Below the pieces are notes generated by a model. That model was not told the origin of the DNA, did no database searches, and saw nothing but the letters and a program-made list of their open reading frames with translations. The position numbers were made by a program, and so were the translations under genes. Below, in pieces: positions 1 through 19,486 of a DNA stretch of 20,000 bases; the stretch's first letter is position 1; every line of letters starts with the position of its first letter. The DNA is from Sanchytrium tribonematis (lineage: Eukaryota), in assembly GCA_018985235.1 (NCBI GenBank), contig JADGIG010000003.1:57008-77007 (forward strand), written 5' to 3'.

Positions 1-930
1 AAGATTGTTTGCAATGCAGTAAGCGAAGGCAATAAAGCTGTAATCAGTGATTTGTTAAATATGGTGGAGGCTCTACCAGAAGATGAATTCGACCTTTGCA
101 ACAAAATTCTTCATACTGCTTACATGTCGACTGAATACAGTTCAATTGAGACAAGAAAAAGGGCGGCCCAATTAGCTTCATTTGTTGGCGCCTATCATTT
201 AGAAGCGGATATCACAAGTATTGTTAATAGCTTTATAGCAGTTATTAGCTCTGTACTTAAAGAACCTAACATAGGCAATTCTTACTCTGAGAATATAGCC
301 TTGCAAAATATCCAAGCGAGATCCAGAATGGTTCTTTCCTACTGCTTTTCCATTCTGGTACCTTGGTTTAGAAATACAAATGGCAACTTGTTAGTGTTGG
401 GTACAGCAAACGTAGATGAATCTTTGCGGGGGTACTTTACCAAATACGATTGCAGTAGTGCAGACTTAAATCTCATTGGTTCAATTTCCAAAACGGATCT
501 AAAAGCTTTTGTTTCTTTTTGCAAAGACAAATTTGAAATGCCATTTCTTTCAGAATTTATAAAAGCAACTCCAACTGCGGAATTAAGACCTGGAGAGGAT
601 CTTCAATCAGATGAAGTAGAAATGAAAATGACTTACGAAGAATTATCGATATATGGACGGTTGAGAAAAATATTCAAATGTGGTCCGATTTCAATGTACA
701 ATCACCTGCTATTAGAGTGGAGTCCTATGCCACCAAAGGAAGTTCTCGATAAAGTTAAAACATTTTTTCATTACTATGGTATCAATAGACACAAAATGGC
801 TGTCATCACCCCATCATACCATGCAGAATCCTATTCACCCGATGACAATCGATATGACTTGCGCCCATTGCTGTACAAAAAATGGGATAGTTTTTATTCT
901 GTAATAGAAGAGCATATCGAAATGCTTTAA
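1..930 (+). CDS. QNS1: Glutamine-dependent NAD+ synthetase, C-terminal synthetase domain (5' partial)
   Basis: Frame is open from base 1 (KIVCNAVSEGNKAVISDL...). Motifs ENIALQNIQARSRMV, LVLGTANVDESLRGYFTKYDCSSAD, PTAEL, DEVEM, INRHKM..TPSYHAESYSPDDNRYDLRP. Stop TAA 928-930. Confidence 0.97.
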   Translation, partial: KIVCNAVSEGNKAVISDLLNMVEALPEDEFDLCNKILHTAYMSTEYSSIETRKRAAQLASFVGAYHLEADITSIVNSFIAVISSVLKEPNIGNSYSENIALQNIQARSRMVLSYCFSILVPWFRNTNGNLLVLGTANVDESLRGYFTKYDCSSADLNLIGSISKTDLKAFVSFCKDKFEMPFLSEFIKATPTAELRPGEDLQSDEVEMKMTYEELSIYGRLRKIFKCGPISMYNHLLLEWSPMPPKEVLDKVKTFFHYYGINRHKMAVITPSYHAESYSPDDNRYDLRPLLYKKWDSFYSVIEEHIEML

Positions 931-2732: not shown

Positions 2733-2978
2733 ATGTCTTCTGCAATTTACGACGAAATAGAATTTGAGGATTTCATTTATGACTCTGTTTCTAAAATATT
2801 TACATATCCGTGTCCTTGTGGCGACAATTTTGTTATTTCTCTTAATGATTTACTTGAGGGAGAGGACATTGCCAAATGCCCTAGTTGCACCTTACAAATC
2901 AAAGTTATTTATGAAATAGAAGACGTTGAAGACTTTGAGGAAGCTGAAATCAATGAAGTTAGTGTGAAAGCCTGCTGA
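2733..2978 (+). CDS. DPH3: Diphthamide biosynthesis protein 3 / Kti11, CSL zinc finger
   Basis: YDEIEFEDF...FTYPCPCGDNF...IAKCPSCTLQIKVIY. ATG at 2733, TGA at 2976-2978. Confidence 0.96.
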   Translation: MSSAIYDEIEFEDFIYDSVSKIFTYPCPCGDNFVISLNDLLEGEDIAKCPSCTLQIKVIYEIEDVEDFEEAEINEVSVKAC

Positions 2979-3020
2979 GACTAAAATTATGCAAAATTTA
3001 ATAAATCTCCTTTTAATTTT

Positions 3021-3365
3021 ATGTCTTCCAGATTAAAAGAATATCTCGAGCAATCATCATTCAGTATGTATTCTTCGTTTGGTCAGGCTGATTACAGTTC
3101 CCTTTTTGAGCCTCGGAAAGGACAAAAGCTTACTGGTGACAATTTTACACCTTTAGATGATTCTGCAAAAGATTTTGGAAATAAAAGTAAGAATCACAAA
3201 GCAATACCCAAAAAGCCAAGTGTGATGGAAGCGCAGCCAAAAAATGAATTGTTCAGAGTACGCAAAATTTCATCCAATGAGCAAGAGTCTACACCAGATG
3301 AATTCGATACACAAAATCAGAATGATGACATGCAAATAAGTAATTCAGAAAGCCCACAGCAATAA
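3021..3365 (+). CDS. Hypothetical hydrophilic, probably disordered protein (114 aa)
   Basis: ATG-initiated ORF fills the gap between DPH3 and NDUFB4 and has the CTCCTT element 8 nt upstream. No family recognised. 3' end overlaps NDUFB4 by 21 nt. Confidence 0.6.
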   Translation: MSSRLKEYLEQSSFSMYSSFGQADYSSLFEPRKGQKLTGDNFTPLDDSAKDFGNKSKNHKAIPKKPSVMEAQPKNELFRVRKISSNEQESTPDEFDTQNQNDDMQISNSESPQQ

Positions 3366-3602
3366 ATACGAATGCAAGAACTCTTTATTAAGTCTGTTTC
3401 TAACATCATTCCATGGGTTATACTTCCGTTCTTCGTTGTAAAATAAGTATCCAAGAAAAGCTGGAAAAAGAACTGCTCTGGTTAAAACATAGCGAGCATT
3501 ATATGAGTTCCATCGAAAATAGTGGTCATAGCCATCTCTAAATGCAACCCATCTTTCAATTGCTGTATCAGGGACAAAATTAGTGAGGAATTTATGACCC
3601 AT
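3345..3602 (-). CDS. NDUFB4: Mitochondrial complex I accessory subunit B15/NB5M (NDUFB4 family)
   Basis: DTAIERW...HYFRWNSYNARY followed by one TM segment (VLFPAFLGYLFY). Matches the fungal DPALERW...YFRWTPRTAR...VPxxxGY pattern. Confidence 0.8.
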   Translation of the reverse strand: MGHKFLTNFVPDTAIERWVAFRDGYDHYFRWNSYNARYVLTRAVLFPAFLGYLFYNEERKYNPWNDVRNRLNKEFLHSYLLLWAF

Positions 3603-3605
3603 TAA

Positions 3606-3616
3606 GTAACAAGGAG
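3606..3616 (-). promoter_or_regulatory. CTCCTTGTTAC start-proximal element (NDUFB4)
   Basis: The same 11-mer with the same 3-nt spacing to ATG occurs at 6126-6136. The CTCCT core precedes 8 genes. Confidence 0.6.
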
Positions 3617-3631
3617 CATAAAAGTTTTATT

Positions 3632-4405
3632 TCAAAACATAAGCAATGCAAGTATATAAACAATACTCAAAGGAAGACTCACACGCTTACCACTAGGGCT
3701 ATCCTTCGGTTTGACACTGTATTGGAATGTGTAATTTGTACAAGAATTTGAAATGCCAGAGAAATTTTTCATAAGAAAATTACTTACGTCTTGCATTTCT
3801 GTAACGGTCATGGTATGCCCTGAATCGTGTTCACAGCGATACAAATTTGCATTGGAATATCTCACGGAATCTATAAATATATTGGTCGACGATGTAAAGC
3901 TGATAATCGATAAAATATCTTTCGATCCGCCACTATAAGCCATGATTTTTGGAACATCATGAACATTATTATAATCTTCTGAATAAACAAATCCGCCTGA
4001 CATGGAAACAACCAACTGAATTTTATCTGCTCTCAGGAAAGCTAAATGAGAACACATAATAGCTCCAGCAGAGAATCCTGCAACATACACTGTAGCAATT
4101 TGCACTTCTTTGAGTATAGCATCAAATAGATTAACATCAGTCATTGTCTCAGAATTTACAAGGTACCACTCGAATTGATTAGGGCCTATCACACTCTTAG
4201 GGGACGCAACAACAATATCTGTCATTTGTTGATACCAAGTCTGATCAACATATTCGGTAGGATCGCCGCCTGTTCTGTGAAAATAAACTACTAGAACATT
4301 GGCCAATCCTTTTTGCGTGGCATAATATTGCCTTGCTTCACCATTCACTGTAATGCTATTCAACTGCCCCCCAACAAATGCAGAAATAAGTAAAATGTGA
4401 ATCAT
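3632..4405 (-). CDS. Secreted, putatively GPI-anchored alpha/beta-hydrolase (PHB-depolymerase/esterase-like), paralog 1
   Basis: Signal-like N-terminus MIHILLISAFVGG, nucleophile elbow GFSAG, candidate Asp (GGSKD) and His (HDSGH), hydrophobic C-terminal tail. Confidence 0.8.
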   Translation of the reverse strand: MIHILLISAFVGGQLNSITVNGEARQYYATQKGLANVLVVYFHRTGGDPTEYVDQTWYQQMTDIVVASPKSVIGPNQFEWYLVNSETMTDVNLFDAILKEVQIATVYVAGFSAGAIMCSHLAFLRADKIQLVVSMSGGFVYSEDYNNVHDVPKIMAYSGGSKDILSIISFTSSTNIFIDSVRYSNANLYRCEHDSGHTMTVTEMQDVSNFLMKNFSGISNSCTNYTFQYSVKPKDSPSGKRVSLPLSIVYILALLMF

Positions 4406-4455
4406 CAATTATGAAGAGGTGTTTCAAATTGGGAAATCCTATATTTTTCGGAAAA

Positions 4456-5280
4456 TTAACTACCAGATAAAAAATAGAGGAGCCAGAAGAAATTACAGCC
4501 GTGAATTATGAGACTTGAACTGTCAACATCTTTGAGTAAATTTTCATTCTGTGCGATGGTACTTTGTTTGAAAAGACAGTCTTTCGGTTTGGTATAATTA
4601 GCAAAATTCGTAATCTTTAAAAAATTAATGGCACTAGCCTGCTCGAGTTCGGTTATTTTGTGTCCCTTATTGTGCTCACAAACAAATAAAATCGAATTCT
4701 TATTCATCGCTTCCGAAATATACCTGTTTGTCGCAGTTTGGAAGGACACCAGTGCTACTGAATCCAAATGTCCACCATTGTATATCATCGTTGGGGGCAC
4801 TATGGTATTATTGTAGCTATTTTCTATAAGGAAGCCGCCACTAAATATAACGGAAGACGCAATCATATTTTGCCTAAGGAATGTCATATGGGCTACATGT
4901 ATGCCTCCTGCAGAAAATCCCATAAGATGAATTTTTTTCCTATCGATTTGTGTTCCTAAAGCTGTAATCAAGTTATCCGAAAGTTCAATATCATCTAAAT
5001 CGTCACTCAGAACAATGTGCCATTCAAATTCTGAAGGGCCAATATCGCTCTTCGGTGCACATATTATCGTATTGTTAGGAACGTGTTTATACCAGTAAGA
5101 TTTTTGGTACTTAAGAACGTCCTCGCTTGTGCCATGGAAATATAAAATTAACGAATTGTTCTCATCTTTTTCGCCTCGCTTTGAGCAGTAGACTTCCCTG
5201 GTTTTACTTCCTATCTGAAATTGATTGAACTGACTAAAAATGATTTCTTTTGACAACAACAGTGACAAAAAAATTATCAT
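4456..5280 (-). CDS. Secreted, putatively GPI-anchored alpha/beta-hydrolase, paralog 2
   Basis: Signal-like MIIFLSLLLS, YFHGT oxyanion motif, GFSAGG, GGHLD, HNKGH, hydrophobic tail. Collinear similarity to 3632-4405 (PKS.IGP..FEW, H..FLR...I, SGGF). Confidence 0.82.
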   Translation of the reverse strand: MIIFLSLLLSKEIIFSQFNQFQIGSKTREVYCSKRGEKDENNSLILYFHGTSEDVLKYQKSYWYKHVPNNTIICAPKSDIGPSEFEWHIVLSDDLDDIELSDNLITALGTQIDRKKIHLMGFSAGGIHVAHMTFLRQNMIASSVIFSGGFLIENSYNNTIVPPTMIYNGGHLDSVALVSFQTATNRYISEAMNKNSILFVCEHNKGHKITELEQASAINFLKITNFANYTKPKDCLFKQSTIAQNENLLKDVDSSSLIIHGCNFFWLLYFLSGS

Positions 5281-5324
5281 GTGATACAAAGGATACAAAC
5301 AATTTAAAAAAAATGCACAGTGAT

Positions 5325-6122
5325 TTATTCATCCGAAAACTCATCAGAATAATTTTCTCGAAATTCTTGCCTTCTCGCCCTTCGTCTAGGTCTATTAGTG
5401 TTACCTCTACGAGATTCATCATCTACCGGCCTGGTGACTTCATCGTCAGAGTATATGTCTTCTCTTTCTACTATCCTTTCTCGCCTTGGTCTTTTATTTG
5501 TCCTCTTTGGTTTCTCTGGCTTATAAGTTACATGATTTCGCATAATATTAATGTCATAATCAACTTCGCTAGGTTTCAATTTCTCGCCAGGTCTACCCAG
5601 AGGCTTCTTTTTCGAATTCGCAAGTCTTTCCAGTATTTCTTCCGGAGTTTCACTATCATTAAGTATCATCTTAGAATACGGCATATTTGTGTCATTAGAT
5701 ATTTTGCCTGGGTCTTTCCGGCCAAAGCTGGTTACAGAATTTTGATTTCGGTCAGTTTCAATTATTTTTTTGCGTTCATTCAGGACTTCCATGAAATTTC
5801 CAAAAATGGAATCGGATATTCTGATAAAATCAGCTTCTATGTAATCTTTCATGTTTGTGGCTGTTTTTACAGCTTCTTCTGATATGTTTTTAAATGTTTC
5901 CTCCGATTCTCGTATCTGGTCTATTCTATTCTTGTCTAGAAGTTTTTCATAATATTGTAGCAAAGGGTGCTGTTTTTGTGTAATTTGCTCCAACTCCTTT
6001 TCTAGCATGCGAATTTGTTTTTTGTGAGGGTCTTCATGCTTTAGCTTTTTTACTTCTTCAGAAATATGCCAATATCTTTTTTCTGCGTCGCTTATCCCAA
6101 TTTCTTCACTGAGACTTCCCAT
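5325..6122 (-). CDS. Sds3/BRMS1-like subunit of the Sin3-Rpd3 HDAC complex
   Basis: Coiled coil LEKELEQITQKQHPLLQYYEKLLDKNR resembles the Sds3 L..I..G.HPEY...L..L...R pattern. C-terminal KKKP...LKPSEVDYDINIM resembles L...EI..D...I. ATG at 6122 follows the CTCCTTGTTAC element. Confidence 0.65.
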   Translation of the reverse strand: MGSLSEEIGISDAEKRYWHISEEVKKLKHEDPHKKQIRMLEKELEQITQKQHPLLQYYEKLLDKNRIDQIRESEETFKNISEEAVKTATNMKDYIEADFIRISDSIFGNFMEVLNERKKIIETDRNQNSVTSFGRKDPGKISNDTNMPYSKMILNDSETPEEILERLANSKKKPLGRPGEKLKPSEVDYDINIMRNHVTYKPEKPKRTNKRPRRERIVEREDIYSDDEVTRPVDDESRRGNTNRPRRRARRQEFRENYSDEFSDE

Positions 6123-6125
6123 AAT

Positions 6126-6136
6126 GTAACAAGGAG
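6126..6136 (-). promoter_or_regulatory. CTCCTTGTTAC start-proximal element (Sds3-like gene)
   Basis: Identical to 3606-3616, 3 nt before ATG 6122. Confidence 0.6.
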
Positions 6137-6275
6137 ACACGTGTCTGATTGGTTTTGCAAAATAGGCTTGTCCAAAAATAAACCGAATAGTTGCATAAAT
6201 TTTACTTATTAATATTCAACTGAATATTTGAATAGGGTTGGAATAAAATATAGAACTGTGTCCAAATTTGTACTC

Positions 6276-7410
6276 TCAAGATGATTTTGGGTGAGTCACA
6301 TCCTCTCCCATAAGACTAGATAAACTAGATGAATATCGCTTATAATGTTGCTTTTTGGTAGTGTGAAATGAAAGTATAGCTGCCACAATGCTAGCAAACA
6401 AGGCGCCGAAAACCAAGAATAAATAATTATAATCGAAAGGAGTATCATTAGCGTCGATGTCTTTTGAATTCTCAGAATTTTTGTCTAAATGAAAATGAAT
6501 TACATGATGATAGTAAAGAGTAAACATTGAAACAATTTTGCAGTGGTGACGAGATTACTAAATTAGAATCTGTGAAAGTGACTGAAGCTCCAAATCCACT
6601 GTTTGGAGACCCATACAATTGATCTAATTTATAATACGGGAGTCCACTATTTGGTTTCAAAAATCTAGATTCGTCGGAAAAAGCTTGCCCAGGTAAGTTT
6701 CTACTTAAAATTGAAACAAAAGGCTCGATTGGATCCGTGACTATTACGAAAAGACCATTTTTCATTGAACTTATTCTTGAGCCATTAATTGACATTGAAC
6801 TATTGTATTTTAATGAATCTCTTTCATAAAAATTAATCTTGTCGTTATTTTGGGTAATCAAATAAAAGTCATTCAGAACTGCATTTATGATAGAGGAGCT
6901 TTGCTCTACTATCCTGACCTGTTTAAGCTTGAGATTTTCAATTTTAAATTGGGTAATTTCGTTTCCGAAAGTAAATATGTCAGAGTCATCGCAGACAAAT
7001 TTAGTTGCTGAGATCGCTGCGTAGTCTACCGGTGTTAAAACTCCGCTATTCATTTGGAAAATTTGAAGCGAATCTGAAGCAATAACTGTTACGAACTTTC
7101 CACATAACTTGACGTCAATGAAATCCAACGCAAAATTATACCATCTATCTTGATATAAGGATACCGATTGACAGACAGATTTAAATAAAATATCATTATT
7201 GAAAGTTGATATACCATAGCCGGCACCGGTTGAACAACTTCCATCTAGATGCCCTAAGATATTATAGTTTGCGTCAAATTTCCAGACTGTGTTCTCCGAA
7301 AACGGGGACCCAATGAAGATTGTGTTGTTTTGTAATGCTGCTGTGGTCCACCCATACAATCCTCCATTAACAGTTTGAGAAGAACAGGAGCTTTTTAAAA
7401 GTTTAAACAT
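6276..7410 (-). CDS. Single-pass membrane protein with FG-GAP-like beta-propeller ectodomain; two exons (7410-6504, 6484-6276), 371 aa
   Basis: Track ORFs 6472-7413 and 6276-6527 join in frame after removing a 19-nt GT-AG intron (...LLSS-Y-KNSENSK...). Repeats GLYGWTTA..NTIFIGSP and SGFGASVTF..NLVISSP; TM YLFLVFGALFASIVAAILSF followed by a basic tail. Confidence 0.7.
6485..6503 (-). other. 19-nt spliceosomal intron GTAATTCATTTTCATTTAG
   Basis: GT-AG ends and TTCAT branch-like motif. Removal fuses two overlapping ORFs in frame and supplies the TM anchor. Confidence 0.8.
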
Positions 7411-7439
7411 CAAACTAACTTGACCTAATTTTGAAACAT

Positions 7440-8099
7440 TTACTTTTTCTTTAACAAAGCAGCTCTTCTAGAATACGTTCTTGGTGCGGGTTTTTTTTGG
7501 GTCTCGTCTGTTCTCTTCTTTTTAATAGGTATATCAACAGATGCGAGTGATGTTCTTTTTAAAGGTATTGAATTTGCCACTTCTGAATCAGAGCTGGTGG
7601 GTGGCACCGCAGTTTTTTTTGAAGTTTTTTTCTTGGACACCGCTTTAGATTTAGCCTTGACATTTTTAGACTTGCTGGAATGCGAATCTTTGATGTTCGG
7701 CGAAATTGTTGATTTTACATCAAGCGGTGACTCCAATGCCTTGTTTTCAAACTGATCTGTTTGTATAAATTGTTCCTTATGGTCATATTCAGCTTGAGCA
7801 AATTGTTCTTTCGAAAAGACTTCATGCTGAATATATTGATCTTTCTGATCTAAATCTGTCTGAACGTTCTGATCATAATAAACATTCTCAATTGTCATAG
7901 TACCCGCACTTTTAATCTCTTTTAGATTTTCGTCCCTCGTGTTCAATGTCTTGGGTTGAATTTTGCCTCTGTTTTCGTCGATAAATTCTTTCACATATTG
8001 TGAAAGTTGTGAATTATCAATAAAAATCTGCTCAAAAGTCACTTTCTTCAAGGATGCGGGCATTTCTTTAAAAATTGAATTGAGATGTTTTGTTGCCAT
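7440..8099 (-). CDS. Hypothetical disordered, basic protein with 11-aa xQT-like tandem repeats
   Basis: 219-aa ATG ORF. Repeats YDQNVQTD / KDQYIQHE / KEQFAQAE / KEQFIQTD and a Lys-rich NLS-like C-terminus. May extend to 7415 via a candidate 19-nt intron. Confidence 0.75.
   Translation of the reverse strand: MATKHLNSIFKEMPASLKKVTFEQIFIDNSQLSQYVKEFIDENRGKIQPKTLNTRDENLKEIKSAGTMTIENVYYDQNVQTDLDQKDQYIQHEVFSKEQFAQAEYDHKEQFIQTDQFENKALESPLDVKSTISPNIKDSHSSKSKNVKAKSKAVSKKKTSKKTAVPPTSSDSEVANSIPLKRTSLASVDIPIKKKRTDETQKKPAPRTYSRRAALLKKK
7755..7880 (-). repeat. Four degenerate 33-bp (11-aa) coding tandem repeats
   Basis: The central Gln of VQT, IQH, AQA and IQT are each exactly 11 residues apart. Confidence 0.7.
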
Positions 8100-8164
8100 T
8101 TGTTGATGCCAAACGAGGGAATATATAAAAAAATTTATTTTTTAGACTCTTTCGAAGTGTGAGA

Positions 8165-9011
8165 TTATAAACCTTTCACGTTCATTAGAAAATTGGATCC
8201 TTGACCAGTTGGGAGAAATGTCACATCGCCGCTCTTACTTAAAGTCTCTGCTATAGATCTACTTGTATCAATTTTTCTCAATTGTACCAAGCCCTCGCCT
8301 GATTTTTCCAAAGCCAAACTGATGAGCTTAGCAGCCTCAGCTTCGCCCTCAGCTCTTACAATGTTTGCCAATTTTTCTTGCTCTGCTTTTTCAACAATAA
8401 ATTTTGCCCTTTCTGCTTCTACGTAAATAATGAGTACCTTGTTGAGCAATTTGCTTCTGCTCTACTGCTTCAGTAAACTCTTTTCCAAATACCATGTGTG
8501 TAATAGATACATCTTCTAGAATGATGGAAAATTCTCTAGCTCTATCTACAAGTTGTGCTCGAATAGCTTCAGAAACTTCCTCCCGCTGAGTTATTAATTG
8601 AGAAGCGTCATATTGAGCAACAACAGATTTAAGCACTTCATTACCAATAGAAGGAAGAACCCTTTCGTTATAATCAGTTCCTAGGGTCTGGTAAATTACT
8701 GAAAGTTTGCTAATTTCAGGTCGATGTAAAACTCGTAATGAAACACTGACATTTTGCAAATCTCTGCTACCTGTGACAGTGGAAATCATTCTGGGTTGTA
8801 TTTTCGCATCAAAAAGTACCACTTTTTGTAAAAACGGAACTAAGAAGTGAGTGCCTTCTTCAGATATTGTTGGTAACACTCCCCTTAGTCTATCGAATGT
8901 GACTGCTCTATAGCCACCCGGAACATCAAATATACTTGATTGTATAGCACTGGCTGTAATACCTAACGTGATTGCAAACTTTCCGAAACGATCGAGCAAT
9001 TTCGCGTTCAT
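8165..9011 (-). CDS. PHB1: Prohibitin 1; two exons (9011-8438, 8418-8165), 275 aa
   Basis: IFDVPGGYRAVTFDR, TGSRDLQNV, DYNERVLPSIGNEVLKSVVAQYDASQLITQRE. Splicing restores the conserved KQIAQQ-E-AERAKF. Confidence 0.97.
8419..8437 (-). other. 19-nt spliceosomal intron GTACTCATTATTTACGTAG
   Basis: CAA CAA G|intron|AA GCA GAA AGG gives QQEAER, the prohibitin consensus with no residue missing or added. Confidence 0.95.
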
Positions 9012-9049
9012 CTCCAATGTTTCGCACAATTGTCGCAATTTAGGAAAAA

Positions 9050-9427
9050 TTATTTTATTTTAAGCCATCTCGGATTCAACTTTTTAGCTGTCTTGCCGTT
9101 ACATCTTCTGCGTCCTCCATTTACCGGAAGACCATATTTAAATTTCAAGCCCCGAATTGTATTCATTTGAACCTCTTTAATAATGTTGCTTTGTACATTT
9201 CTTTTCAAATCACCTTCTAGTGTTAAATTTGATAAATGATTCGAAATTTTCTGGACCTCGCTTTCTTCCAAAGAACCAATAGTGAGCTTAGGAGCGATGG
9301 TCAAAGCAGCGCAAATCTCTTTACCTTTAGCTTGCCCAATTCCATATATACGACTGAGCCCATAATAAACAAAATCTGTTTTGGGTATGGTTACGCCTAA
9401 TAGTCTAATGGTAGCGTTTGTTGCCAT
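9050..9427 (-). CDS. SWS2: Mitochondrial ribosomal protein uS13m (Sws2-like)
   Basis: IRLLG, GLSRIYGIGQAKGKEIC, LEGDLKR, RGLKFKYGLPVNGGRRRCNGKTAKKLN (S13 family). First ATG at 9427. Confidence 0.9.
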   Translation of the reverse strand: MATNATIRLLGVTIPKTDFVYYGLSRIYGIGQAKGKEICAALTIAPKLTIGSLEESEVQKISNHLSNLTLEGDLKRNVQSNIIKEVQMNTIRGLKFKYGLPVNGGRRRCNGKTAKKLNPRWLKIK

Positions 9428-9447
9428 TAATTTTTGTATCACCCTTT

Positions 9448-10758
9448 ATGAAACTATACAGTCAAATCATACTCATTTTTTTCTTGGCAACTTTTATTGT
9501 CAACAAGACGTGGTTTGTTCCCGACGAGCATTTTCAAAGCATCCAATTGGCATACACAAGAGTCTATAGTATTGGAGAGACAGTGTGGGAATTCGATGAC
9601 GCGATTCGATCTGGGCTATTTTACGGCCTATATGAGTATTATTTAAGAGTCTTACAATATTTACACATAGACACTACATTTATGATAAACGAATTCCCAA
9701 GAGTAATAACTTTTAGTTTAATGATTTATGTACAAGAAAAACGAATAAAACATAACCCACTTATATTATTTCATTGGATGCATTTATTCATGGGCCCCCG
9801 AACTCTAGTCAACACTATGGAATATATTATTTACACAGGCTCTATAAATTCCAAATGGTTTTATCCACTAATGAGCCTTGGTTGTATAATACGCCCTACT
9901 TTGGGAATATTTTACTTCCCTATTTTTTTAAATCAAGTCCGTGAAGATCTGAAGTGTGTTTTCAATTGGATTTTTTGGGGAACTGCATCCTTCGGATTTT
10001 CAATTTTAATCGATACTTACTATTATCAGCGATGGACCAGTTCGATTTGGAATTTTTTTAATTTCAATGTGGTGCACAATTTTTCAGAATTTTATGGAAC
10101 TCATAACGGATTATGGTATATAACATCAGCGCTACCCACCCTTTTAGGTGGCTGCATCATATATTTCATTGTAGGTTTATTTAAAGTATCCAGAAAGGAT
10201 ATTTTTTATATTTCCATTCCGTTGCTAATATTTAGCTTAATGAAGCATAAAGAGTTTCGTTTCCTATATCCTCACATGGACAAATATCTTGACATTGCGC
10301 TTGTGGGGTACAATGCTTTACCAAACAAGCATTTGAAAATTGTCTCTCAAATTGTTAATATTTTTTTAATTCTGTTATTTTGCTTTGTGCACCAAAGTGG
10401 AATTTATGCAGCATTTGACATTCTCAAGTTTGAAAATATTAGCACGCTGATGATTTTTGCACCTTGTTATTCATTTCCAGGTCAATCTTATCTTCATTCA
10501 AATATTAGCATCATACCACTCCGCTGTGATCCACCACACATGTCCCTTGTATTGCCACAGCAAGAAGATTATTACAGTGATCCAGCCAGCAAAACAAAAA
10601 TGTTTTTAGAGCAACACAAGCCAAGTCATGTTTTAAAGTTTTCGAATTTAAAATTGGATTTACAAGATTTCTCCTTAAAGTATTCGATTTTTAACAGCTA
10701 TTTTCATGATGATAGCAGAAGGCTTGGTGATGTGGAAATTTGGGTAAGAAAGGACTAA
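9448..10758 (+). CDS. GPI10: GPI mannosyltransferase 3 (PIG-B/Gpi10, GT22)
   Basis: FVPDEHFQS, WEF..AIRS, PRTLVNTME, IIRPT, FYGTHNGLWY, HKEFRFLYP, PCYSFP.QS.LH; multi-TM. First ATG at 9448. Confidence 0.92.
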   Translation: MKLYSQIILIFFLATFIVNKTWFVPDEHFQSIQLAYTRVYSIGETVWEFDDAIRSGLFYGLYEYYLRVLQYLHIDTTFMINEFPRVITFSLMIYVQEKRIKHNPLILFHWMHLFMGPRTLVNTMEYIIYTGSINSKWFYPLMSLGCIIRPTLGIFYFPIFLNQVREDLKCVFNWIFWGTASFGFSILIDTYYYQRWTSSIWNFFNFNVVHNFSEFYGTHNGLWYITSALPTLLGGCIIYFIVGLFKVSRKDIFYISIPLLIFSLMKHKEFRFLYPHMDKYLDIALVGYNALPNKHLKIVSQIVNIFLILLFCFVHQSGIYAAFDILKFENISTLMIFAPCYSFPGQSYLHSNISIIPLRCDPPHMSLVLPQQEDYYSDPASKTKMFLEQHKPSHVLKFSNLKLDLQDFSLKYSIFNSYFHDDSRRLGDVEIWVRKD

Positions 10759-10760
10759 AT

Positions 10761-11699
10761 CTAAACATCTTTATTATAAATAAGCTCATAGGCTTTACCG
10801 TAAGTAATTTTATCCTGTAAGAATTGATTGTAAATCAATTGATTACTACGGGATGTGGCATACATTGGCAAGGACAATTTATCTGCAATAAACATCTGAA
10901 CATTTTCTGCATAAATAACTGGATCCCTTTTTTCCAGATCATTAGGGTAATAAAGCGGATATAATGTAACTTTGCAGGAATGAGAAAATTCGCACAGCAT
11001 TCGGAACAGCCAGTATGAGAAATTTATACTTTCAAAAGCGGGTGAAAAGTTTTTGTATTGATACTCAAAAGTCATTGGTAAAACAGCAATTCCTGGAACA
11101 AACGCACCCGTTTTAAAAGAAATTACATAATAGCCATTTGTTGTTGTAGCTTCAGGAAATACAGCTATATTTGGTCCAGGAAAATCGAGACATTTAGAAA
11201 GTAATTTTGAAACCCCATTTTGTTCTTTGGCAATGAAAATGCACTGCAATTTTTTGGCAATTCTCCCAAAGAAAGGAATTTTTTGCAAGTCTGAGCGGCA
11301 AAGAAACGCGGGCATATCATCACTAGAAACGATCATCAATAAATAATCTATTATGCTGATATGATTTGACACTACAAAACGACTTTGAACCTTGTCTTTT
11401 CGATAGTCTTCGATTTTGATTTTCCAAAAACCAAATATGAATAGTAAAAGCCTTGCACTCAATTTGCATGATTTCGCAAATAGTCTGTAAGTAAACGAGT
11501 TAAATTTCATTGGTAAAAAACTAAGTAAATAAGGCGGCAAAACAGCAAATGGCATCAAAGACATTTTAGGAATGATTCCTAAACTACCCAAGAAGATTTT
11601 ACAACTCTTTAATAAAGATAGTCTTTCATTAGGTCTATAAAATGGTAGAACGTGTAAGGAATTAGCTAGTTCTCTGGAATACTTATTTTGAAATTCCAT
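10761..11699 (-). CDS. Lysophospholipid acyltransferase (LPCAT/LPEAT-like, PlsC family)
   Basis: HX4D motif NHISIID, FPEATTTNG, FKTGAFVPG..VLP. First in-frame ATG at 11699. Confidence 0.9.
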   Translation of the reverse strand: MEFQNKYSRELANSLHVLPFYRPNERLSLLKSCKIFLGSLGIIPKMSLMPFAVLPPYLLSFLPMKFNSFTYRLFAKSCKLSARLLLFIFGFWKIKIEDYRKDKVQSRFVVSNHISIIDYLLMIVSSDDMPAFLCRSDLQKIPFFGRIAKKLQCIFIAKEQNGVSKLLSKCLDFPGPNIAVFPEATTTNGYYVISFKTGAFVPGIAVLPMTFEYQYKNFSPAFESINFSYWLFRMLCEFSHSCKVTLYPLYYPNDLEKRDPVIYAENVQMFIADKLSLPMYATSRSNQLIYNQFLQDKITYGKAYELIYNKDV

Positions 11700-11781
11700 G
11701 GTATATTGTTTTATGTTAGACAAAGGAGAATGGACATTTTCACGATTTTTGTATAGGCGCTCAAATTAAAAGTTTTTTGAT

Positions 11782-14113
11782 TTATTTTAATTGATCTATC
11801 AAAATAGATTGTGCCTCGTTCATGTGTCTCAAAAGCACAATAGCAAAACTACATTAAGAACGTAAACCTTGGATCTAAGTTTTCTTTCTTTCGAGAAAAA
11901 GTTTTCAAACAATCTATCAGTTTTTCGCTACTACTCTTTTGTGTGCTAGTGTCCATTTCCTTCACTGGAGAAATTGAGCTATCTGGTCCAAAACTAACTC
12001 TTTTCGAAGACTTTACTATGACGGGTGAATCTGCAACAAATAAGTCAACGTTGTTTGGAGAGAAATTAGAATCCGACGGTTCGACACTTCTTTTCGTCCG
12101 TTTGTGGACTGAAGTATCAGAGTCTATCGATTGACGCTTCGAACTTTTCGATTCTGGGGTGATACTACCTCCAAATTGTCTACAAACGGACTTTGAAAAT
12201 CCGACATCCTTGATGATTGTGTAAATAAAGTTGTACATATCAGGCCTTTCTTTAAGCATTCCAATCAGCTGATTATCATTTTTGTAGTGCTTCAAAACAT
12301 TTTTCAAAATTTCTTCATCAGGATTTAGGAAGGCACAATTAGAAATAAACTTCAGCACAGTATAGCGTTCAGTTGTTTCTAAATTGAGACCAGCGGATAT
12401 AGATCCAGAAAATGCTAAAATAATTCCCAGAGATTCATTCTTATTTCCGTTAATATTTGATAACTTGGTTTGCTCTACTGTTAAGAACGAATTCAAACGG
12501 TCGAAAAATTTAAAAACTTCAGCTCGGAAATTTAGTGCGCCTCTTGGGTGCAAGAAATAATTACAATCATCAGGATTGTCAAAGCAGACAGCGAAATCGT
12601 TCTTTACAAGATAGGAAAAAGACTTTGCTGCAAACCAAGACATGTTTTCAGTAAGTTTTTTCACAATTTGAATCATCTGGCTTTCCCACTTTGCGGGAAT
12701 GACACACTTCTGTCGAATTGAACTCATAAGCTTACACCAAGCTTCGGTTATTGATTTTGAATAAGGCACCTGAGCGTTGGGAATACCACTAGCTTTTTGT
12801 ATCCACAATATTGGGAATGCGGCAATCTCCAAAATGCAATCGTTACTAGAAAAGCTATCAGACATGTCTTTTTGCTCCAAAAACTCCGAAATCCTGATGG
12901 CTAATAGATTCCATACCATCAAACAGTTTGAAATATGGACAGGTGATTGATCTGAGGCAGTATAGATATCTAGTACTCCTGCCAGAGCGGAATAATTGTC
13001 AAGTGCAAATAAATTAGATTGAGCAGCTGTAAAGCAAGCATCAAATAAATTTTTTGCTTCCATAGAAAATCTTTCAAACATCAAACCTGATTTTTGTAGC
13101 AAAATCGTGAAAATGGCAACTACTGGCGTGATGGCCAAGTTCGAGAGCTTCTCTGCTCTATAAATTGCAAAATTTTCTCTATTTTTAGCCGATAATCTAA
13201 ACTTTTGCGAAGCCAAAATTGTTGAGTCCATGCTTATTAAAAACACTTTTAAAAAGACAGTCTTAAAAACTACGTCGTTGACATTGCTCAATTCGGACCC
13301 GACCTTAAGAAATAGATTCTGCACAAGATCAATTATCGTTTGAGAAGGATGAATTAATTTCGAAGTCCTCTCTGATAAGAAATTAGTCATTGCTTGATAT
13401 GCGTCAATATATGATCTAGATATTAATTTGGGATTCACTAAACTATTGATTTCTTCAGGTTTCAGCTCTGGAATACCAGATAGACTTTCAAAAAATATAT
13501 CGCATAGTTGGGGCATTCGCTTCTCCAGAAAATCTGAATTGAATTTAGGAAACCGACAAAGCACACTGGTATTTTCGGTTATTGGATTAAAAATTTCTTT
13601 AATAGTATCTTCTGAATCTTTGACAGTGTTTCCTCTGACTATAGCGGTGATGCAAAATCCTACATGCTTTGGCGAATAATTTAATAAGCTTTTTAAAAAT
13701 GTAATTATCAAAGAATCCCAATGATCTTCTAGTTCATGCACCACAGAGCAAAGCCTTATCCAGGTTGGTATAATCACAGTAACACTTTTTTTGATACCTG
13801 GAATAAAAGGAACTTGGCAAAGTGCAATTTTCTTCTCCGATAGCTGATTTTGCTCCTTTAAAGCCAGAATAAACAGAGACCAAGATTGAAGAGCTAAGCT
13901 AATATTTTCGAATGTTTTGGCGTTAAAGACATTTTGAATTTCCTTTAGCATCTGATTTAATAGTATTTTGTCTGCAAGAATATTTTCCCTTTGCAAATAT
14001 ATTTTAAGACCCCATAATTTGATTTTGTCTTGTAAGTTAGATGGAGCATATTTAACTTCAAACGATTTTCTATAAACATGGTCCCAATTGCACCAAAGTT
14101 CATCTATTGACAT
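11782..14113 (-). CDS. RIF1: Rif1-like replication-timing/telomere protein; two exons (14113-11868, 11848-11782), 770 aa
   Basis: IKLWGL..LLNQMLKEIQNVF...ALQSWSLFI...SEKKIALCQVPF parallels Rif1_N HEAT repeats (LWP..FINSLL....F...AFIAWKSLI...KRLKLLMQPL). Also an SP-rich linker, KRVSF PP1 motif and a helical C-terminal domain completed by splicing. Confidence 0.7.
11849..11867 (-). other. 19-nt spliceosomal intron GTTTACGTTCTTAATGTAG
   Basis: AG|GT donor, CTTAAT branch-like motif, TAG acceptor. Removal gives ...ENLDP-S-FAIVLLRHMNEAQSILIDQLK*, an amphipathic helix filling an otherwise large gap. Confidence 0.8.
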
Positions 14114-14217
14114 CTCAATGGTTGACCCTTGTTTTGCTGCAAGTAAGAAATTGAATTCAATCTCGATACCCTGCTGTTAAATAAAGCTGCTTTGCGAATT
14201 TAGACAATTATAATGAT

Positions 14218-14391
14218 TTATTTCATCAACTTGCTTGGCCCTTGTTTACCACTTTCCCATTTGCTGACTTTAATCAAGTTCTCAAATTTACTTTTATTCT
14301 TCACTTCCTCTTTTAACGCAGATCTAAGGGCATCTGAAGCTGTTGACAAATATTTGAGGTAAGTCCAATTTGCAGCACGAAATGATTGCAT
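14218..14391 (-). CDS. ATP15: Mitochondrial F1 ATP synthase epsilon subunit (57 aa; absent from ORF track)
   Basis: Manual translation MQSFRAANWTYLKYLSTASDALRSALKEEVKNKSKFENLIKVSKWESGKQGPSKLMK* matches the family pattern WR.AG.SY..Y....A.A.R..LK.E...KW.NGK. Confidence 0.92.
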   Translation of the reverse strand: MQSFRAANWTYLKYLSTASDALRSALKEEVKNKSKFENLIKVSKWESGKQGPSKLMK

Positions 14392-14537
14392 CAAAAAATC
14401 CCCTAAAAATAAATAAAATAAGTGGGCAAATATTTGAATGGATATTCTCTCGATAGACCATTTCAGAAAGATGTCACAAAAGCATTCTTAACATTCAAAT
14501 TCGTTAAATTTGAACGGAGGATGTATAAAACAATAAT

Positions 14538-16430
14538 ATGATTGCAATCGGATACGCGTCGCAAACTGGTACCGCTGAACATATATCGAAGCACCTAAAG
14601 CAAGAGCTGGACGCGATGGGTATTAATTGCATGGTGTATCCTCTCGAAGAATATTCAAAAGTGCCCTATAATGAATTACAGCTGCATATCTTTATTGTAA
14701 GTTCCACTGGAGATGGAGATTGTCCCGAACACACACTTCCTTTTTATAAATGGCTTAGAAAGCTTAAAAAGTCCAAGGAGCCTTTGTTGAAAGGACTTAA
14801 ATATTGCATGCTCGGTCTTGGCGATACGAATTACACTAATTTTAATGGAAATGCGAAAAAGACACTGAAATTTTTAAAGGAACTTGAATGCGAGCCAGTT
14901 TTTAGAAACGAAATGGCCGACGATGCTGTTGGACTAGAGAGATTTGTAGACCCTTTTATTGATGAAGTGATACAATTTGTATCTAATAGGGCAGCTGTTA
15001 TAAAACAAAACAATATGCAAAATTTAGTTGAAGAGACCTCACGCTTAAGCACCAGGGATGCTGCAAACAAGTTTGATTTTAATATATCTACAGAAACCTT
15101 TAAACCATCTAGACTACCTAATCATATTACATGGAAAACTAAAGGCACAAGGGATCCTTCAATAGACTTTTTCCACTATAAAAAGACTTTAGTTGATAAA
15201 TCTGACCAAATTTGCGCTTCTACTGAATTGACATTAATCCGTGGGAAATGCATTACTCAAAAAAACTCAATTAAAAAATCGTACCAGATGTCTATCAAAG
15301 CTAATGGTTGCCATTTCAATGCCGGTGACTCAATTACTTTGTTTTTTCCAAATCCGAGCAAAATGGTAGAAGATGTACTTCACATATTTGGATATACTTT
15401 GGCTAACAATCCCGTGATTCTGGATGGTGAATATGATGATATATCATTGCACGATCTTCTTAAATATCGACTAAGTTTCAAATTTCCTTCTAAAAGATTT
15501 CTGAGACTAGTTTCCGAATATTGTAAGGACGATTTCGAAAAGAAAAAATTGATGTATCTGACATCAAAAGAAGGAGCAAGAGAATTTAACTCTTTAAGAG
15601 ATTCTAACTATTCATTGTTTGACGTTCTTTCTGCCTTTCCATCATGTGCCCCACCCATATATGCATTAGGTTTATTGGATATTTTGAAGCCTCGCCACTA
15701 CAGTGTTGTGGAATTCAGGCAAGATCAGGCTGAAATAGATATTGTATTTAATTTGAAAGAATTCAAGGTTGCAGAAAATGTAGGATTTGGGTTGGCTACT
15801 GGATATTTGTACGCATGCATGAATGAAAGTATCGAATTTGAAAAGGTAATTACTTTAAACCAACCAATATTAGGACTTCCTGCACCTACAAGTACATTCA
15901 CGTTAGACCCTCATAATCCAGTCGTATTTATTGGGCCTGGAAGTGGTGTTGCACCTTATTTGCAGTTTATAAAAGATTTAAATTTTGGACAGAAAGCTCT
16001 TTTAATTCAAGGTTGCCGAGGCCCCGAAGATTGGATATTAAAAAAAGATCTATCTGAAATTACTAAAGCTAGAGAAATTCCTTATTTTGTAGCTTATTCA
16101 AGAGTAAGTGCATGTGCTATACAGTCTATCAACGATGGCGTAACACTTGCTGAAAATGATGTGCACAAAGTTGGAGATTTATTGGGATACTCAAAGGCTG
16201 GTGCTTATGTATGGGATGTAATCAATACCTACAAAGAATTGATTTTAGAATACTTTGATGAAGATGCTGTTTTTTACTTATGTGGAGACGCAAACTCTAT
16301 GGTTAAAATGTTCCTCGAGGTCATGAAAATTGTCATTAGCTCCACAAACCATATATCTATGGAGAATGCTTCCAAAATTGTGGAGCAAATGATCAAAAAC
16401 AAACAAATTCGATTGGATGTTTGGGGCTAG
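14538..16430 (+). CDS. MTRR: Methionine synthase reductase (diflavin FMN/FAD/NADPH reductase)
   Basis: YASQTGTAE, SSTGDGDCP, LGLGDTNY; MTRR-type ADDAVGLE..VDP and KRFLR.VSEY..D..EKKKL.YL.SKEGA.EF; DVLSAFPSCAPP, PRHYS, GPGSGVAP, YLCGDA, terminal DVWG. Confidence 0.85.
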   Translation: MIAIGYASQTGTAEHISKHLKQELDAMGINCMVYPLEEYSKVPYNELQLHIFIVSSTGDGDCPEHTLPFYKWLRKLKKSKEPLLKGLKYCMLGLGDTNYTNFNGNAKKTLKFLKELECEPVFRNEMADDAVGLERFVDPFIDEVIQFVSNRAAVIKQNNMQNLVEETSRLSTRDAANKFDFNISTETFKPSRLPNHITWKTKGTRDPSIDFFHYKKTLVDKSDQICASTELTLIRGKCITQKNSIKKSYQMSIKANGCHFNAGDSITLFFPNPSKMVEDVLHIFGYTLANNPVILDGEYDDISLHDLLKYRLSFKFPSKRFLRLVSEYCKDDFEKKKLMYLTSKEGAREFNSLRDSNYSLFDVLSAFPSCAPPIYALGLLDILKPRHYSVVEFRQDQAEIDIVFNLKEFKVAENVGFGLATGYLYACMNESIEFEKVITLNQPILGLPAPTSTFTLDPHNPVVFIGPGSGVAPYLQFIKDLNFGQKALLIQGCRGPEDWILKKDLSEITKAREIPYFVAYSRVSACAIQSINDGVTLAENDVHKVGDLLGYSKAGAYVWDVINTYKELILEYFDEDAVFYLCGDANSMVKMFLEVMKIVISSTNHISMENASKIVEQMIKNKQIRLDVWG

Positions 16431-16453
16431 GTAGGAGAAGCGAAATAAATCAA

Positions 16454-17164
16454 ATGCTTTTTGACTTTGACGACGACATCATTGTTAAGTCTCGCGATAG
16501 ATTTCAAAATTTAGAATATAATTCTAACTTTATCCCAAAATATAAGGCAAAAACAGATTTGAATTCCCTAGACCTCGGAAAAGCAGATGTTAAATTGAAA
16601 ATAAGCAAACTAAATTATTTGTATTTAAGAAAAAACTATGATGAATGCTATAGTCTAGCTTTGAAGATGGTGTTGCAAAATGATGACAAAGAATTGGATT
16701 TTAATACTACGTCAAAACCTACCACCTACAAAAAGGAATTGACTGGTGGAAACAAGAGAACTCTTGTTGACGTACTTATAAGATGCTGGATAAAATCGCA
16801 GCGCAAAAATGAAATTGATGCCATTCAAAAGTGTGTGGAAATTGCTGAAACATCTGCAGCAGAAGATTTTGGATTTTTTTATAGCAAAATTTTATTTACA
16901 TTTTACGTTGACCATTGCAAATGCTACCAATTAATATTAGAGTATTTGAGATTAAGACCTGGAGACATCAAAGCTATTGATATTGTGGTTCAACTTAACA
17001 TACCAAATAAGCTTCGTTCACACCTCATCAAGGAGTTTGCAATTTCAAAAAAATTAGCGGCATTAGAATTTGACTATCCGGAAATATCAGTAACTCCTGA
17101 AGACCAAAGTCTTATTTCTGCAAGATCAAAAGCAGTGACACTAACTTCAGTAAAAGACTTGTAG
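16454..17164 (+). CDS. Helical/TPR-like protein resembling the uncharacterised C8orf76 family
   Basis: N-terminal FDFDDD, K..YLYLRKNYDEC and KRTLVDVLIRC recall C8orf76 (EFEDS; KGDLAYRRQEY; RDVQEGQARC). First ATG at 16454. Gene is confident, family call tentative. Confidence 0.5.
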   Translation: MLFDFDDDIIVKSRDRFQNLEYNSNFIPKYKAKTDLNSLDLGKADVKLKISKLNYLYLRKNYDECYSLALKMVLQNDDKELDFNTTSKPTTYKKELTGGNKRTLVDVLIRCWIKSQRKNEIDAIQKCVEIAETSAAEDFGFFYSKILFTFYVDHCKCYQLILEYLRLRPGDIKAIDIVVQLNIPNKLRSHLIKEFAISKKLAALEFDYPEISVTPEDQSLISARSKAVTLTSVKDL

Positions 17165-17172
17165 AACTAGAA

Positions 17173-17562
17173 TTAGGTCCCATCTATTGCATCACCATCT
17201 TCATCTCCGTAATCAGCGATGTAGTCGTTATCTTCCTCCTCAGTTGGTACATTGTTGTCAGAGATATGATTTTCATTTTCTTCATCGTCTTCATCGTCAG
17301 AAGAGAGTACTGTAGCACCGATTTTCGAAATTGTACCTTTAATCAATTCAGCTGGCATCATATCGTCGATTTCGATCTCTTCAGTATCGTGTAATTCTCT
17401 CATTCTTTTACAAAAATCAATTGCCCAATTCGACACCTCATCCTCTAACACCTCTGGTTCTTCTGGTGTATATTCAGGCCAATTGTTGACACAATCAATT
17501 TGTTCTTGTTGTAGTTTTGTGATGGATGCAAAATTGACAAGTAAATTCGCACTGCGTTTCAT
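17173..17562 (-). CDS. RPC31: Minimal RNA polymerase III subunit C31 (RPC31/POLR3G-like)
   Basis: WPEY.P..P..L.......F.KRMR, MPAEL and acidic tail EEEDNDYIADY match the Rpc31 pattern (FP..P.PL...FR.RM; PxEL; E.DNDY...YF). Confidence 0.65.
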   Translation of the reverse strand: MKRSANLLVNFASITKLQQEQIDCVNNWPEYTPEEPEVLEDEVSNWAIDFCKRMRELHDTEEIEIDDMMPAELIKGTISKIGATVLSSDDEDDEENENHISDNNVPTEEEDNDYIADYGDEDGDAIDGT

Positions 17563-17699
17563 AGTGGACCCTATTATTCAATTTCAAAACTTGAGTCACA
17601 TCCATTTACCATGGAAACATTATTTACTCGATTATTGCTTCGGATTACAAGCTAATTATCATTAATTTTGAATTTGCTCCTGTTTCGTATAGTTTAGAA

Positions 17700-18467: not shown

Positions 18468-18481
18468 TGAAAATAAAATCT

Positions 18482-19486
18482 TTATTGGCCCCATCCATAG
18501 TTTGATGGCAACTGAACATCCACATCCATATTCTCACCTTCTGGTGGTTCCCCGGAAACTTCTTTTTTCAAACTTGTGTACAGCAAGGCAAACTTTGCAT
18601 TTAAAACTTCGACAGCTTCTTCTACAATAAATCTTGCCCTAAGGGCCCCAGTTGATTCTAACTCAAAATAGAAAACACTAGGCTCTGTGTTAAGAAGAGC
18701 TTCACTGTCTCCAGAAGGGGGCATCTCCAGACTGGCATTCTTAGATCTTGGCCATTCTTTCTCGATAACATCGTCAGCGGGAACACCATCCGGGACTTCC
18801 ATTGGCGATCCTACCACCTTAGCGACTCCGTAGGTAGGAAATCCCTCGACTTGCTGCTCCAGCCAATATCTTGTATGTCGGAGCTTGTTATGAGGATCAT
18901 ACTCAAAAGCCAAACCAGCGACAGGTGACCACTTTGCGTGTTCTTTACCAACGCCTTTTTTCGCAATACAGTCGACTGTCAACGTCTGCCCTTTTGCAAG
19001 TCGAGTTATTAAAATACCCTGATCTACATAATTTTTAATGTTTCCGTATTTGTCGGGTATTTCAAAATCTGGTAAAACGAATGGAGGCACATTGTCAAAA
19101 TTAGCTTGCACAATTAAATCATTTGTGTCGACTCTCTTGTCTGTCCCTCTATCAGTATTTGTTTTATCAATTTGGTATACCACAGCACAATTATTGCAAT
19201 ATTCGTCACAAGTACAGTCTCGAGACGATTTTAAAGTTTTGAGAGAATTGTCTGAAATTAAAGGTATGAGACCCAATCTATGCGCTATATATTCATCTGG
19301 TAATACACTAGTATTAACAGTAAAATTAACTAGGTCGATCGCAATCGTGGGGACCTCTGCTACCATTGTACGTCGTAAGGCATTGGCGAGACCAATATAC
19401 GAATCTCTCAATATGAAAGATATCTCCAGATCGCTGACATCGGTGACTTCAATTTGTGTTTCGACAACATCAGTTTCTGCTGGCAT
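18482..19486 (-). CDS. RPB3: RNA polymerase II subunit RPB3
   Basis: LANALRRTMVAEVPTIAID, NTSVLPDEYIAHRLGLIPL, Zn loop CTCDEYCNNC, AKKGVGKEHAKWSP, FEYDPHNKLRHT, ESTGAL. First ATG at 19486. Confidence 0.97.
   Translation of the reverse strand: MPAETDVVETQIEVTDVSDLEISFILRDSYIGLANALRRTMVAEVPTIAIDLVNFTVNTSVLPDEYIAHRLGLIPLISDNSLKTLKSSRDCTCDEYCNNCAVVYQIDKTNTDRGTDKRVDTNDLIVQANFDNVPPFVLPDFEIPDKYGNIKNYVDQGILITRLAKGQTLTVDCIAKKGVGKEHAKWSPVAGLAFEYDPHNKLRHTRYWLEQQVEGFPTYGVAKVVGSPMEVPDGVPADDVIEKEWPRSKNASLEMPPSGDSEALLNTEPSVFYFELESTGALRARFIVEEAVEVLNAKFALLYTSLKKEVSGEPPEGENMDVDVQLPSNYGWGQ

Follow-up and report, generated by a model that had tools for sequence, protein, structure and literature searches.

Candidate 19-nucleotide introns in a sanchytrid fungus: a probable convergent tiny-intron lineage

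Tiny introns in described lineages and candidates in the sanchytrid window

The lineages known to have spliceosomal introns of 21 nt or less, namely ciliates, mikrocytids and nucleomorphs, are all far from yeast. Stentor coeruleus, a heterotrich ciliate, is described as having RNA-validated introns of 15-16 nt, mostly of a length divisible by three, with a lariat loop of 10-11 nt, a branch A at position -6 followed by a 5-nt tail, and a U-rich, degenerate branch region (PMC9505925; PMC13685798); intron density there is below 0.10 per kb, and most spliceosomal proteins are kept. The parasite Mikrocytos mackini has very short introns of two lengths (217 of 224 at 16 nt and 7 at 17 nt), highly conserved in sequence, and just 17-19 spliceosomal proteins (PMC10245619). 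GT-AG introns of 18-21 nt under weak sequence constraint are cited for chlorarachniophyte nucleomorphs (PMC10245619, PMC2483917). Here we analyzed a 20,000-nt stretch of DNA from Sanchytrium tribonematis (contig JADGIG010000003.1; the window), in which three 19-nt segments, located in genes for the prohibitin PHB1, an FG-GAP-like protein and a Rif1-like protein, are candidate introns of comparable size.

The spliceosomal introns that we found reported for fungi and their relatives are longer than this. Microsporidia, which are holomycotan parasites, also have short introns with a branch site near the AG. In Encephalitozoon cuniculi these span 22-76 nt (PMC3629993), and the shortest in Vairimorpha necatrix is 24 nt (PMC10759460). 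Microsporidian introns are variable, have strict 5' and branch motifs, often reside in ribosomal protein genes and are served by a strongly reduced spliceosome. In Yarrowia lipolytica the pyrimidine tract is absent, and a spacing of 2 nt between branch motif and AG likewise brings the branch A to -6, but the branch consensus is strict, the introns are rather long and the donor-to-branch distance is unconstrained (PMC2483917). Convergent shortening in parasites has also been described for myxobolids and dicyemids, with medians of 22-27 nt (PMC13644364); these are animals, and their introns are longer than the sanchytrid ones.

The sanchytrid candidates resemble those of Stentor in their tiny and narrow length, the branch A at -6 with its 5-nt tail, the U-rich, degenerate branch region, the low density (about 0.05-0.16 introns per kb in the window) and, judging from a relative, the retention of most spliceosomal proteins. 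They differ in being 19-20 nt long and not divisible by three, in having a predicted loop of 14-15 nt, in belonging to an unrelated lineage and in being known from sequence alone. Unlike the mikrocytid case, a relative keeps U1-70K, Prp40, U2AF and SF1, and the donors vary after GT. With nucleomorph introns they have the length range, the GT-AG ends and the weak sequence constraint in common. Whereas the nucleomorph is an intron-dense relic of an endosymbiont nucleus, the sanchytrid genome is the intron-poor main nucleus of an aerobic fungus, and, unlike in microsporidia, the three introns lie at 69-97% of the coding length. We probably see a convergent case of a known tiny-intron type, that of Stentor, mikrocytids and nucleomorphs; several precedents lie outside the fungi, and the sample is small. 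An independent origin, as had been proposed for this DNA from sequence alone, is a reasonable inference for Sanchytriomycota, which are far from ciliates, Rhizaria and nucleomorphs, and the sanchytrids are a probable new, convergent tiny-intron lineage. At 19-20 nt, theirs would likely be the shortest spliceosomal introns that we found reported for fungi and relatives, the previous being the 22 nt of E. cuniculi. A report of sanchytrid introns was not found by title or abstract in the openly licensed PMC and bioRxiv literature; in the accessible text of the sanchytrid genome paper the word intron occurs once, in a reference title (PMC8371127), and a single such occurrence is found in that of PMC10459994.

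Frame repair, homologues and the three candidate introns

The three 19-mers (6485-6503, 8419-8437 and 11849-11867) are all on the minus strand, and in 3/3 there is a GT at the start, a TAG at the end and an A at -6. A previous sequence-only reading had given coordinates, ends and the A exactly, leaving the strand unsaid, and had called all three introns well supported. That description holds for PHB1, by homology, and indirectly for 6485-6503, but not for 11849-11867, where the evidence consists of the motif, the gap size and a weak coding signal. We conclude, with a probability of roughly 0.68, that the frame-breaking 19-mer of PHB1 and the two similar stretches are ordinary U2-type spliceosomal introns that have shrunk to a norm of about 19-20 nt. 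Coordinates are collected in Table 1.

Table 1. Candidate introns, their exons, and decoy or rejected segments in the window
Feature	Positions	Strand	Remarks
19-nt GT-AG intron of PHB1 (predicted)	8419..8437	-	phase 1, codon 192; predicted branch A 8424; frame repair
PHB1 exon 1, Band 7 domain	8438..9011	-	Pfam PF01145; 80-81% identity to three sanchytrid-like proteins
PHB1 exon 2	8165..8418	-	68/83 residues identical to P0004 C-terminus, gapless
Probable 19-nt GT-AG intron, FG-GAP-like gene	6485..6503	-	phase 1; predicted branch A 6490; homologue break points
FG-GAP-like gene exon 1	6504..7410	-	54% identity to P0242, 37% to P0243
FG-GAP-like gene predicted exon 2	6276..6484	-	68 open codons; one hydrophobic helix, short basic tail
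Possible 19-nt GT-AG intron, Rif1-like gene	11849..11867	-	phase 2, 3' end of gene; predicted branch A 11854; full 3' motif
Rif1-like gene exon 1	11868..14113	-	Pfam Rif1_N E=0.0007, under cut-off
Rif1-like gene possible exon 2, 21 codons	11782..11848	-	weak codon signal
Decoy 19-nt GT..AG, A at -6	184..202	+	in NAD synthetase open reading frame; G+C-richer, poorer U2 match; removal breaks frame
Decoy 21-nt GT..AG, good branch motif	18685..18705	-	RPB3 coding sequence aligning gapless to both relatives
Chance motif match, rejected as intron	16707..16725	-	antisense to plus-strand open reading frame 16454-17164

In the prohibitin gene, 1,503 frame-keeping deletions of 1-60 nt were scored against eight intact homologues, and the 19-nt cut ranked at the top; two deletions tied with it, both of them register shifts, and GT-AG ends occur in this register alone. 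Its removal neither gains nor loses a residue, and exon 2 is 82% identical to the intact relative P0004. Read from the frame and the homologues, the assignment of an intron to PHB1 is firm.

For the FG-GAP-like gene, both homologues found (2/2; P0242 and P0243) align up to the same Cys, after which they have tails of 5 and 2 residues that are unrelated. Because they end just past the same Cys, each appears to read into a phase-1 intron, whose T|GT donor gives Cys. The tail of P0242 has five codons, by which its stop comes to lie at a distance of 20 nt from the GT; the last two codons fit Y-T-N and then A-C-N, so that, provided the stop is TAG, the tail yields a 20-nt intron with an A at -6; the probability of such a fit by chance was about 0.2-0.3% in a simulation, for a test that was picked after the tail had been seen. 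The predicted exon 2 stayed open in 0.9% of 20,000 shuffles, scored 0.22 bits per codon, which is inside the range of the 23 genes of the window, with negative scores in the other frames, and reached a hydropathy of 2.58 over 19 residues. The intron at 6485-6503 is thus well supported indirectly, by homologue tails and coding signal. Splicing would add a membrane helix and give the protein (6276-7410, minus strand) an integrin-alpha-like layout. The family name is a lead only: FG-GAP_2 clusters appeared at 0.90 in the ESM Atlas with low recognition for exon 1, and the Pfam FG-GAP_2 match of P0242 (E=0.006) is under the cut-off. Homologues were found in two sanchytrid-like relatives alone, and a scan of the alignment against viral and prokaryotic genome contigs gave no relative.

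The intron at 11849-11867 in the Rif1-like gene is unproven as judged from its sequence. Its putative exon 2 stayed open in 16% of shuffles and scored 0.26 bits per codon, and a second frame is also open with a positive score (0.15). In the Atlas, Rif1_N was the third cluster at 0.88, an ambiguous result and a lead only, and the putative exon 2 together with the end of exon 1 found no match in the PDB.

The gene layout of the window bears on all three sites. The three largest of its 22 intergenic gaps (349, 291 and 149 nt), the third of them in the Rif1-like case, sit behind the three unspliced stops, and splicing would cut them to 153, 65 and 82 nt. No gene among the 23 besides these three needed an intron; all frame breaks found were explained by exactly 19 nt, and a longer intron was needed nowhere.

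Sanchytrids are fungi that parasitise algae. Three sanchytrid-like proteins share 80-81% identity with the window prohibitin, and none of the other 116 among the matches listed exceeds 70%; one of the three (P0003) is labelled Amoeboradix gromovi by its source. In a prohibitin tree of 35 rows, the window protein and these three form one clade with support 100/100, and in an RPB3 tree of 29 rows the window sequence joins two ENA proteins, again with 100/100; rows of both trees were picked by hand from the 120 listed matches. Because of the clade shared with the A. gromovi prohibitin and the RPB3 grouping, we assign the DNA, by these sequence trees, to a sanchytrid (Sanchytriomycota) separate from A. 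gromovi. The sister group of Sanchytriomycota is given as Blastocladiomycota (PMC8371127).

The relatives also inform on length and position. The A. gromovi PHB1 loses its frame two codons past the intron site of the window. Of the donor offsets (0-15) and lengths (8-39) tried, a 20-nt GT-AG intron in phase 0 is the only solution compatible with its read-through as well as with an intact relative, and it was reached with 2/4 references. P0002 ends abruptly at residue 207, which fits another intron or a contig end, whereas P0004 is full length. The lengths obtained are therefore 19, 19 and 19 in the window and 20 and 20 as deduced in relatives. The uniform 19 nt claimed earlier holds within the window (3/3) but not across the lineage, for which a norm of 19-20 nt, not strictly 19, is likely on the available sequences. 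In PHB1 the breaks fall at 8437 in the window, 5 nt downstream in A. gromovi, possibly a third about 45 nt further on, and nowhere in P0004. This near-intron pair suggests sliding or recent gain.

All three window genes stand in a public protein collection as unspliced read-through products. Look-ups of 20 proteins gave single-member clusters only, one protein being absent from the collection, and yielded no spliced twin. Gene calling for the published sanchytrid proteomes allowed for no introns and is described as done with TransDecoder on genomic contigs (PMC8371127). Because of this calling method and the unspliced deposits, claims of gene loss and truncation for Sanchytriomycota need re-checking at a minimum intron length below 19.

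In each of the three genes the intron falls within the last third (at 69, 81 and 97% of the coding lengths), the reverse of the 5' bias that yeasts and microsporidia are described as having; this is a small sample in which detection bias is possible. The larger gaps around 7410-7470, 14113-14218 and 17562-17700 were inspected by eye for 5' introns, and no candidate was accepted: the GT..AG stretches had no Y after the -6 A, gave no useful frame or were absent.

Predicted branch site, proposed splicing and competing explanations

The exact pattern of the sequence-only reading matched the window four times against 0.12 expected, but it had been built from three of its own four matches. A relaxed pattern matched four times against 1.06 expected, a count that 10 of 200 shuffles reached. 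Motif counts were rejected as proof of introns, being circular or weak; the evidence is frame repair and the relatives, not the motif. Seven of ten sense-strand 19-mers with GT, an A at -6 and YAG lie inside continuous open reading frames and lack the full branch motif, so length alone cannot be the signal, which corrects the length-measured splicing proposed earlier. Nor is the 3' motif sufficient by itself, because two 21-22-nt stretches bearing it are found inside the RPB3 and NAD synthetase coding sequences. Recognition would need the branch/AG module plus a donor at a narrow distance, neither of which alone tells introns from decoys.

U12-type introns have an extended conserved 5' motif and a branch motif. 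The donors of all three candidates differ from +3 on, in agreement with their description as degenerate beyond GT, and the U12 5' motif is found in none; a minor, U12-type intron is not supported by these variable donors. With the textbook U2 hexamer as the reference, rather than the U2 of the window organism, 4-5 of 6 positions pair in all three introns, and the four positions that face U2 purines are paired in 3/3. These four are the T9, T11, T12 and Y15 of the shared motif reported before, which is present yet not a new motif, as ordinary U2 pairing predicts these positions. Judged by this pairing, it is probably a U-rich, degenerate branch site of the standard U2 type. The U2 branch-recognition hexamer is described as conserved in nearly all eukaryotes surveyed (PMC13685798). 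An A at -6 with no pyrimidine tract, as present here, has a known fungal precedent in Y. lipolytica, whose introns are long (PMC2483917). An Rfam scan of the window returned one chance match and no small nuclear RNA (snRNA).

We propose that U2 snRNA, its usual hexamer assumed, would pair with intron positions 9-15 and leave A14 bulged, and that the 3' AG would then be chosen by its fixed spacing of 5 nt from the branch A, without a pyrimidine tract. The 5' GT, 13 nt ahead of the branch A, would give a 14-nt lariat loop. The donor-to-branch minimum in human extracts is put at about 50 nt (PMC6692369). Because 13 nt is far under this, U1 and U2 would likely be unable to sit side by side and early assembly would probably be altered, as has been argued for Stentor also (PMC9505925). 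For S. cerevisiae, 10 nt is given as the shortest natural branch-to-AG distance; neither Slu7 nor Prp18 is needed when the distance is short, and Prp18 has been proposed as the ruler that sets the minimum (PMC10711555). A fixed choice of the AG at 5 nt may render Slu7 and Prp18 dispensable, or allow their loss. How short an intron can become and still be spliced is an open question of structure; from donor to branch site the introns here would offer 13 nt against the human value of about 50 nt (PMC6692369). If true, a fungus at 19-20 nt would permit a much closer comparison with the yeast spliceosome structures and genetics, making it possible to identify and test the changes on which such small lariats depend (U1 footprint, Slu7/Prp18, Smu1/RED, branching factors).

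The splicing factors of A. gromovi were taken from its published eggNOG table (PMC8371127 Supplementary Data 1), which is partial (3,838 of 7,220 proteins annotated). It has rows for Prp8, Brr2, Snu13, U5-40K, cactin, U2AF35, U2AF65, SF1, SF3B1 and U1-70K, and further for Dbr1, Prp5, Prp21, Prp40, Cef1, Yju2, Cwc25 and Isy1. There are also counts for identifiers that we take to be Prp22, Prp16, Prp17 and U1A; no label was found in this partial table for Slu7, Prp18, Prp19, Prp39, Smu1 or RED under the identifiers taken to be theirs. By annotation, this relative has a major spliceosome and a debranching enzyme. A reduced spliceosome of about 20-30 proteins with U1 parts largely missing is not what the partial inventory describes, as U1-70K, Prp40, U2AF35, U2AF65, SF1, SF3B1 and Prp21 are all labelled. 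Thus the modified spliceosome suggested before, in the sense of heavy reduction, is not supported in A. gromovi, where most core factors, U2AF, SF1 and SF3B1 included, are labelled in this partial table.

Several points weigh against the conclusion that the three stretches are U2-type introns of a 19-20-nt norm. Excision is predicted from DNA rather than read from RNA, the search for sequencing runs with this stretch having listed no RNA run, and in two of the three introns a longer acceptor keeps the same frame (43 nt for 6485-6503 and 40 nt for 11849-11867). The enrichment of the full 3' motif at 19 nt is modest: 3/25 among sense-strand GT..YAG 19-mers and 9/224 at other lengths of 15-25 nt. 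The narrow length is drawn from three introns in 20 kb and two deduced from protein tails, for which the -6 base of the P0003 intron is not fixed by the read-through and the terminal AG of P0242 is assumed; P0243 and P0002 break at intron-like places yet yield no length. PHB1 introns are not conserved in position, because P0004 is intact though 91% identical to the A. gromovi protein. A variable true C-terminus of the FG-GAP-like protein is possible, its start shows no evident signal peptide, and a homologue search of 1.84 billion representatives with the Rif1-like protein returned itself alone. The absence of Slu7 and Prp18 is a weak lead, because the near-universal Prp19 is also unlabelled and only part of the proteome is annotated.

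That tiny GT-AG introns of spliceosomal type with a branch-like A at -6 occur in this fungus is nevertheless supported by the ends, the PHB1 frame repair and the relatives. More tentative, and doubtful as a whole, is a wider proposal in which the spliceosomal introns of the whole phylum Sanchytriomycota would be restricted to 19-20 nt, shorter than in any other fungi, and processed by a near-complete spliceosome lacking the Slu7/Prp18 ruler, with donor, branch and AG forming a unit of fixed geometry and with ongoing gain or shift at 3'-biased sites; the last element is suggested because four sanchytrid-like proteins together show three different PHB1 break positions in a stretch of about 50 nt.

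It is rather unlikely that the introns are real and spliceosomal while 19-20 nt marks the short end of a broader range, the window being unrepresentative. The sample of three, with two deduced lengths, leaves room for it, as do the intron-like breaks in P0243 and P0002 that give no length and the wide span known from E. cuniculi (PMC3629993), but all frame breaks among the 23 genes fit exactly 19 nt, and 20 nt was obtained for each of the two relatives whose length could be derived.

We consider it quite improbable that the prohibitin intron alone is real and that the unspliced stops are the true ends of the FG-GAP-like and Rif1-like proteins, with motifs that arose by chance. C-terminal tails do vary naturally, the Cys common to them might be genuine, support for two exons in the Rif1-like gene is weak, and motif decoys exist. 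Against this, an otherwise abnormal gap of 349 nt is filled by an exon of 68 codons that has coding-like codon use and a membrane helix, the P0242 tail fits, as independent evidence, an intron of 20 nt that carries a branch motif, and length and U2-facing bases are common to all three stretches.

Assembly or amplification artefacts, or pseudogene frameshifts, are a very improbable source of the inserts. In sequencing run X1 a single contig crosses all three 19-mers without a gap at a depth of 182.6, which speaks against assembly insertions, yet X1 is the only DNA run found with this stretch and is possibly the source of the window DNA, hence not independent. PHB1 exon 2 is intact and 82% conserved, in other organisms the proteins of two of these genes also break off, each with a tail unrelated to the others, and shared GT, AG and branch motif would not be expected of artefacts.

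Fungal HAC1/hacA introns are 19-20 nt long and are removed by IRE1 and tRNA ligase; IRE1-cleaved introns of the HAC1/XBP1 type have stem-loops at both junctions and non-GT-AG ends. Removal of this kind, or ribosomal bypassing, is scarcely credible here in spite of the similar length, given the GT-AG ends, the branch-like A, the lack of paired junction hairpins (folding z-scores of +1.77, +0.68 and +0.76, no better than shuffles) and a relative that encodes a spliceosome and a debranching enzyme.

Gene setting and minor observations

Outside the motif the three intron sequences differ. As regards an introner family, which would have many near-identical copies, one 20/21 match to 6485-6503 is present on another contig of X1, maybe by chance. 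On that second contig (4,762 nt, depth 28.5; one of four short pieces listed) the match extends over 6485-6505, that is, the intron and two exon bases, and the two sequences part precisely where the 3' splice site lies; this may represent a near-identical intron elsewhere, or chance.

The window is compact, with 23 genes in 20 kb and most intergenic gaps below 50 nt; its G+C content is about 35%, and mitochondrial proteins are encoded. RPB3 (18482-19486, minus strand) has insertions relative to other fungi that are common to both sanchytrid-like relatives, and because both carry them, they are taken as protein sequence and not as retained introns. A metagenome scan with the RPB3 alignment, using generic peptide patterns, gave 80 loci whose identity was 30-48%. 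The sanchytrid-like proteins have 67%, a value that no locus came near, and the loci were not used. Across 14114-19589, contigs of X1 disagree with the window at many single bases and depth falls, against one such place in 1-12445; an allelic or strain mixture in this right half is possible.

Two adjacent Abhydrolase_2 esterases on the minus strand (3632-4405 and 4456-5280) have hydrophobic N- and C-termini and, from these features, are probably secreted, anchored tandem paralogues. Convergent gene pairs overlap at their 3' ends at 927-930 (4 nt) and 3345-3365 (21 nt), a sign of strong genome compaction.

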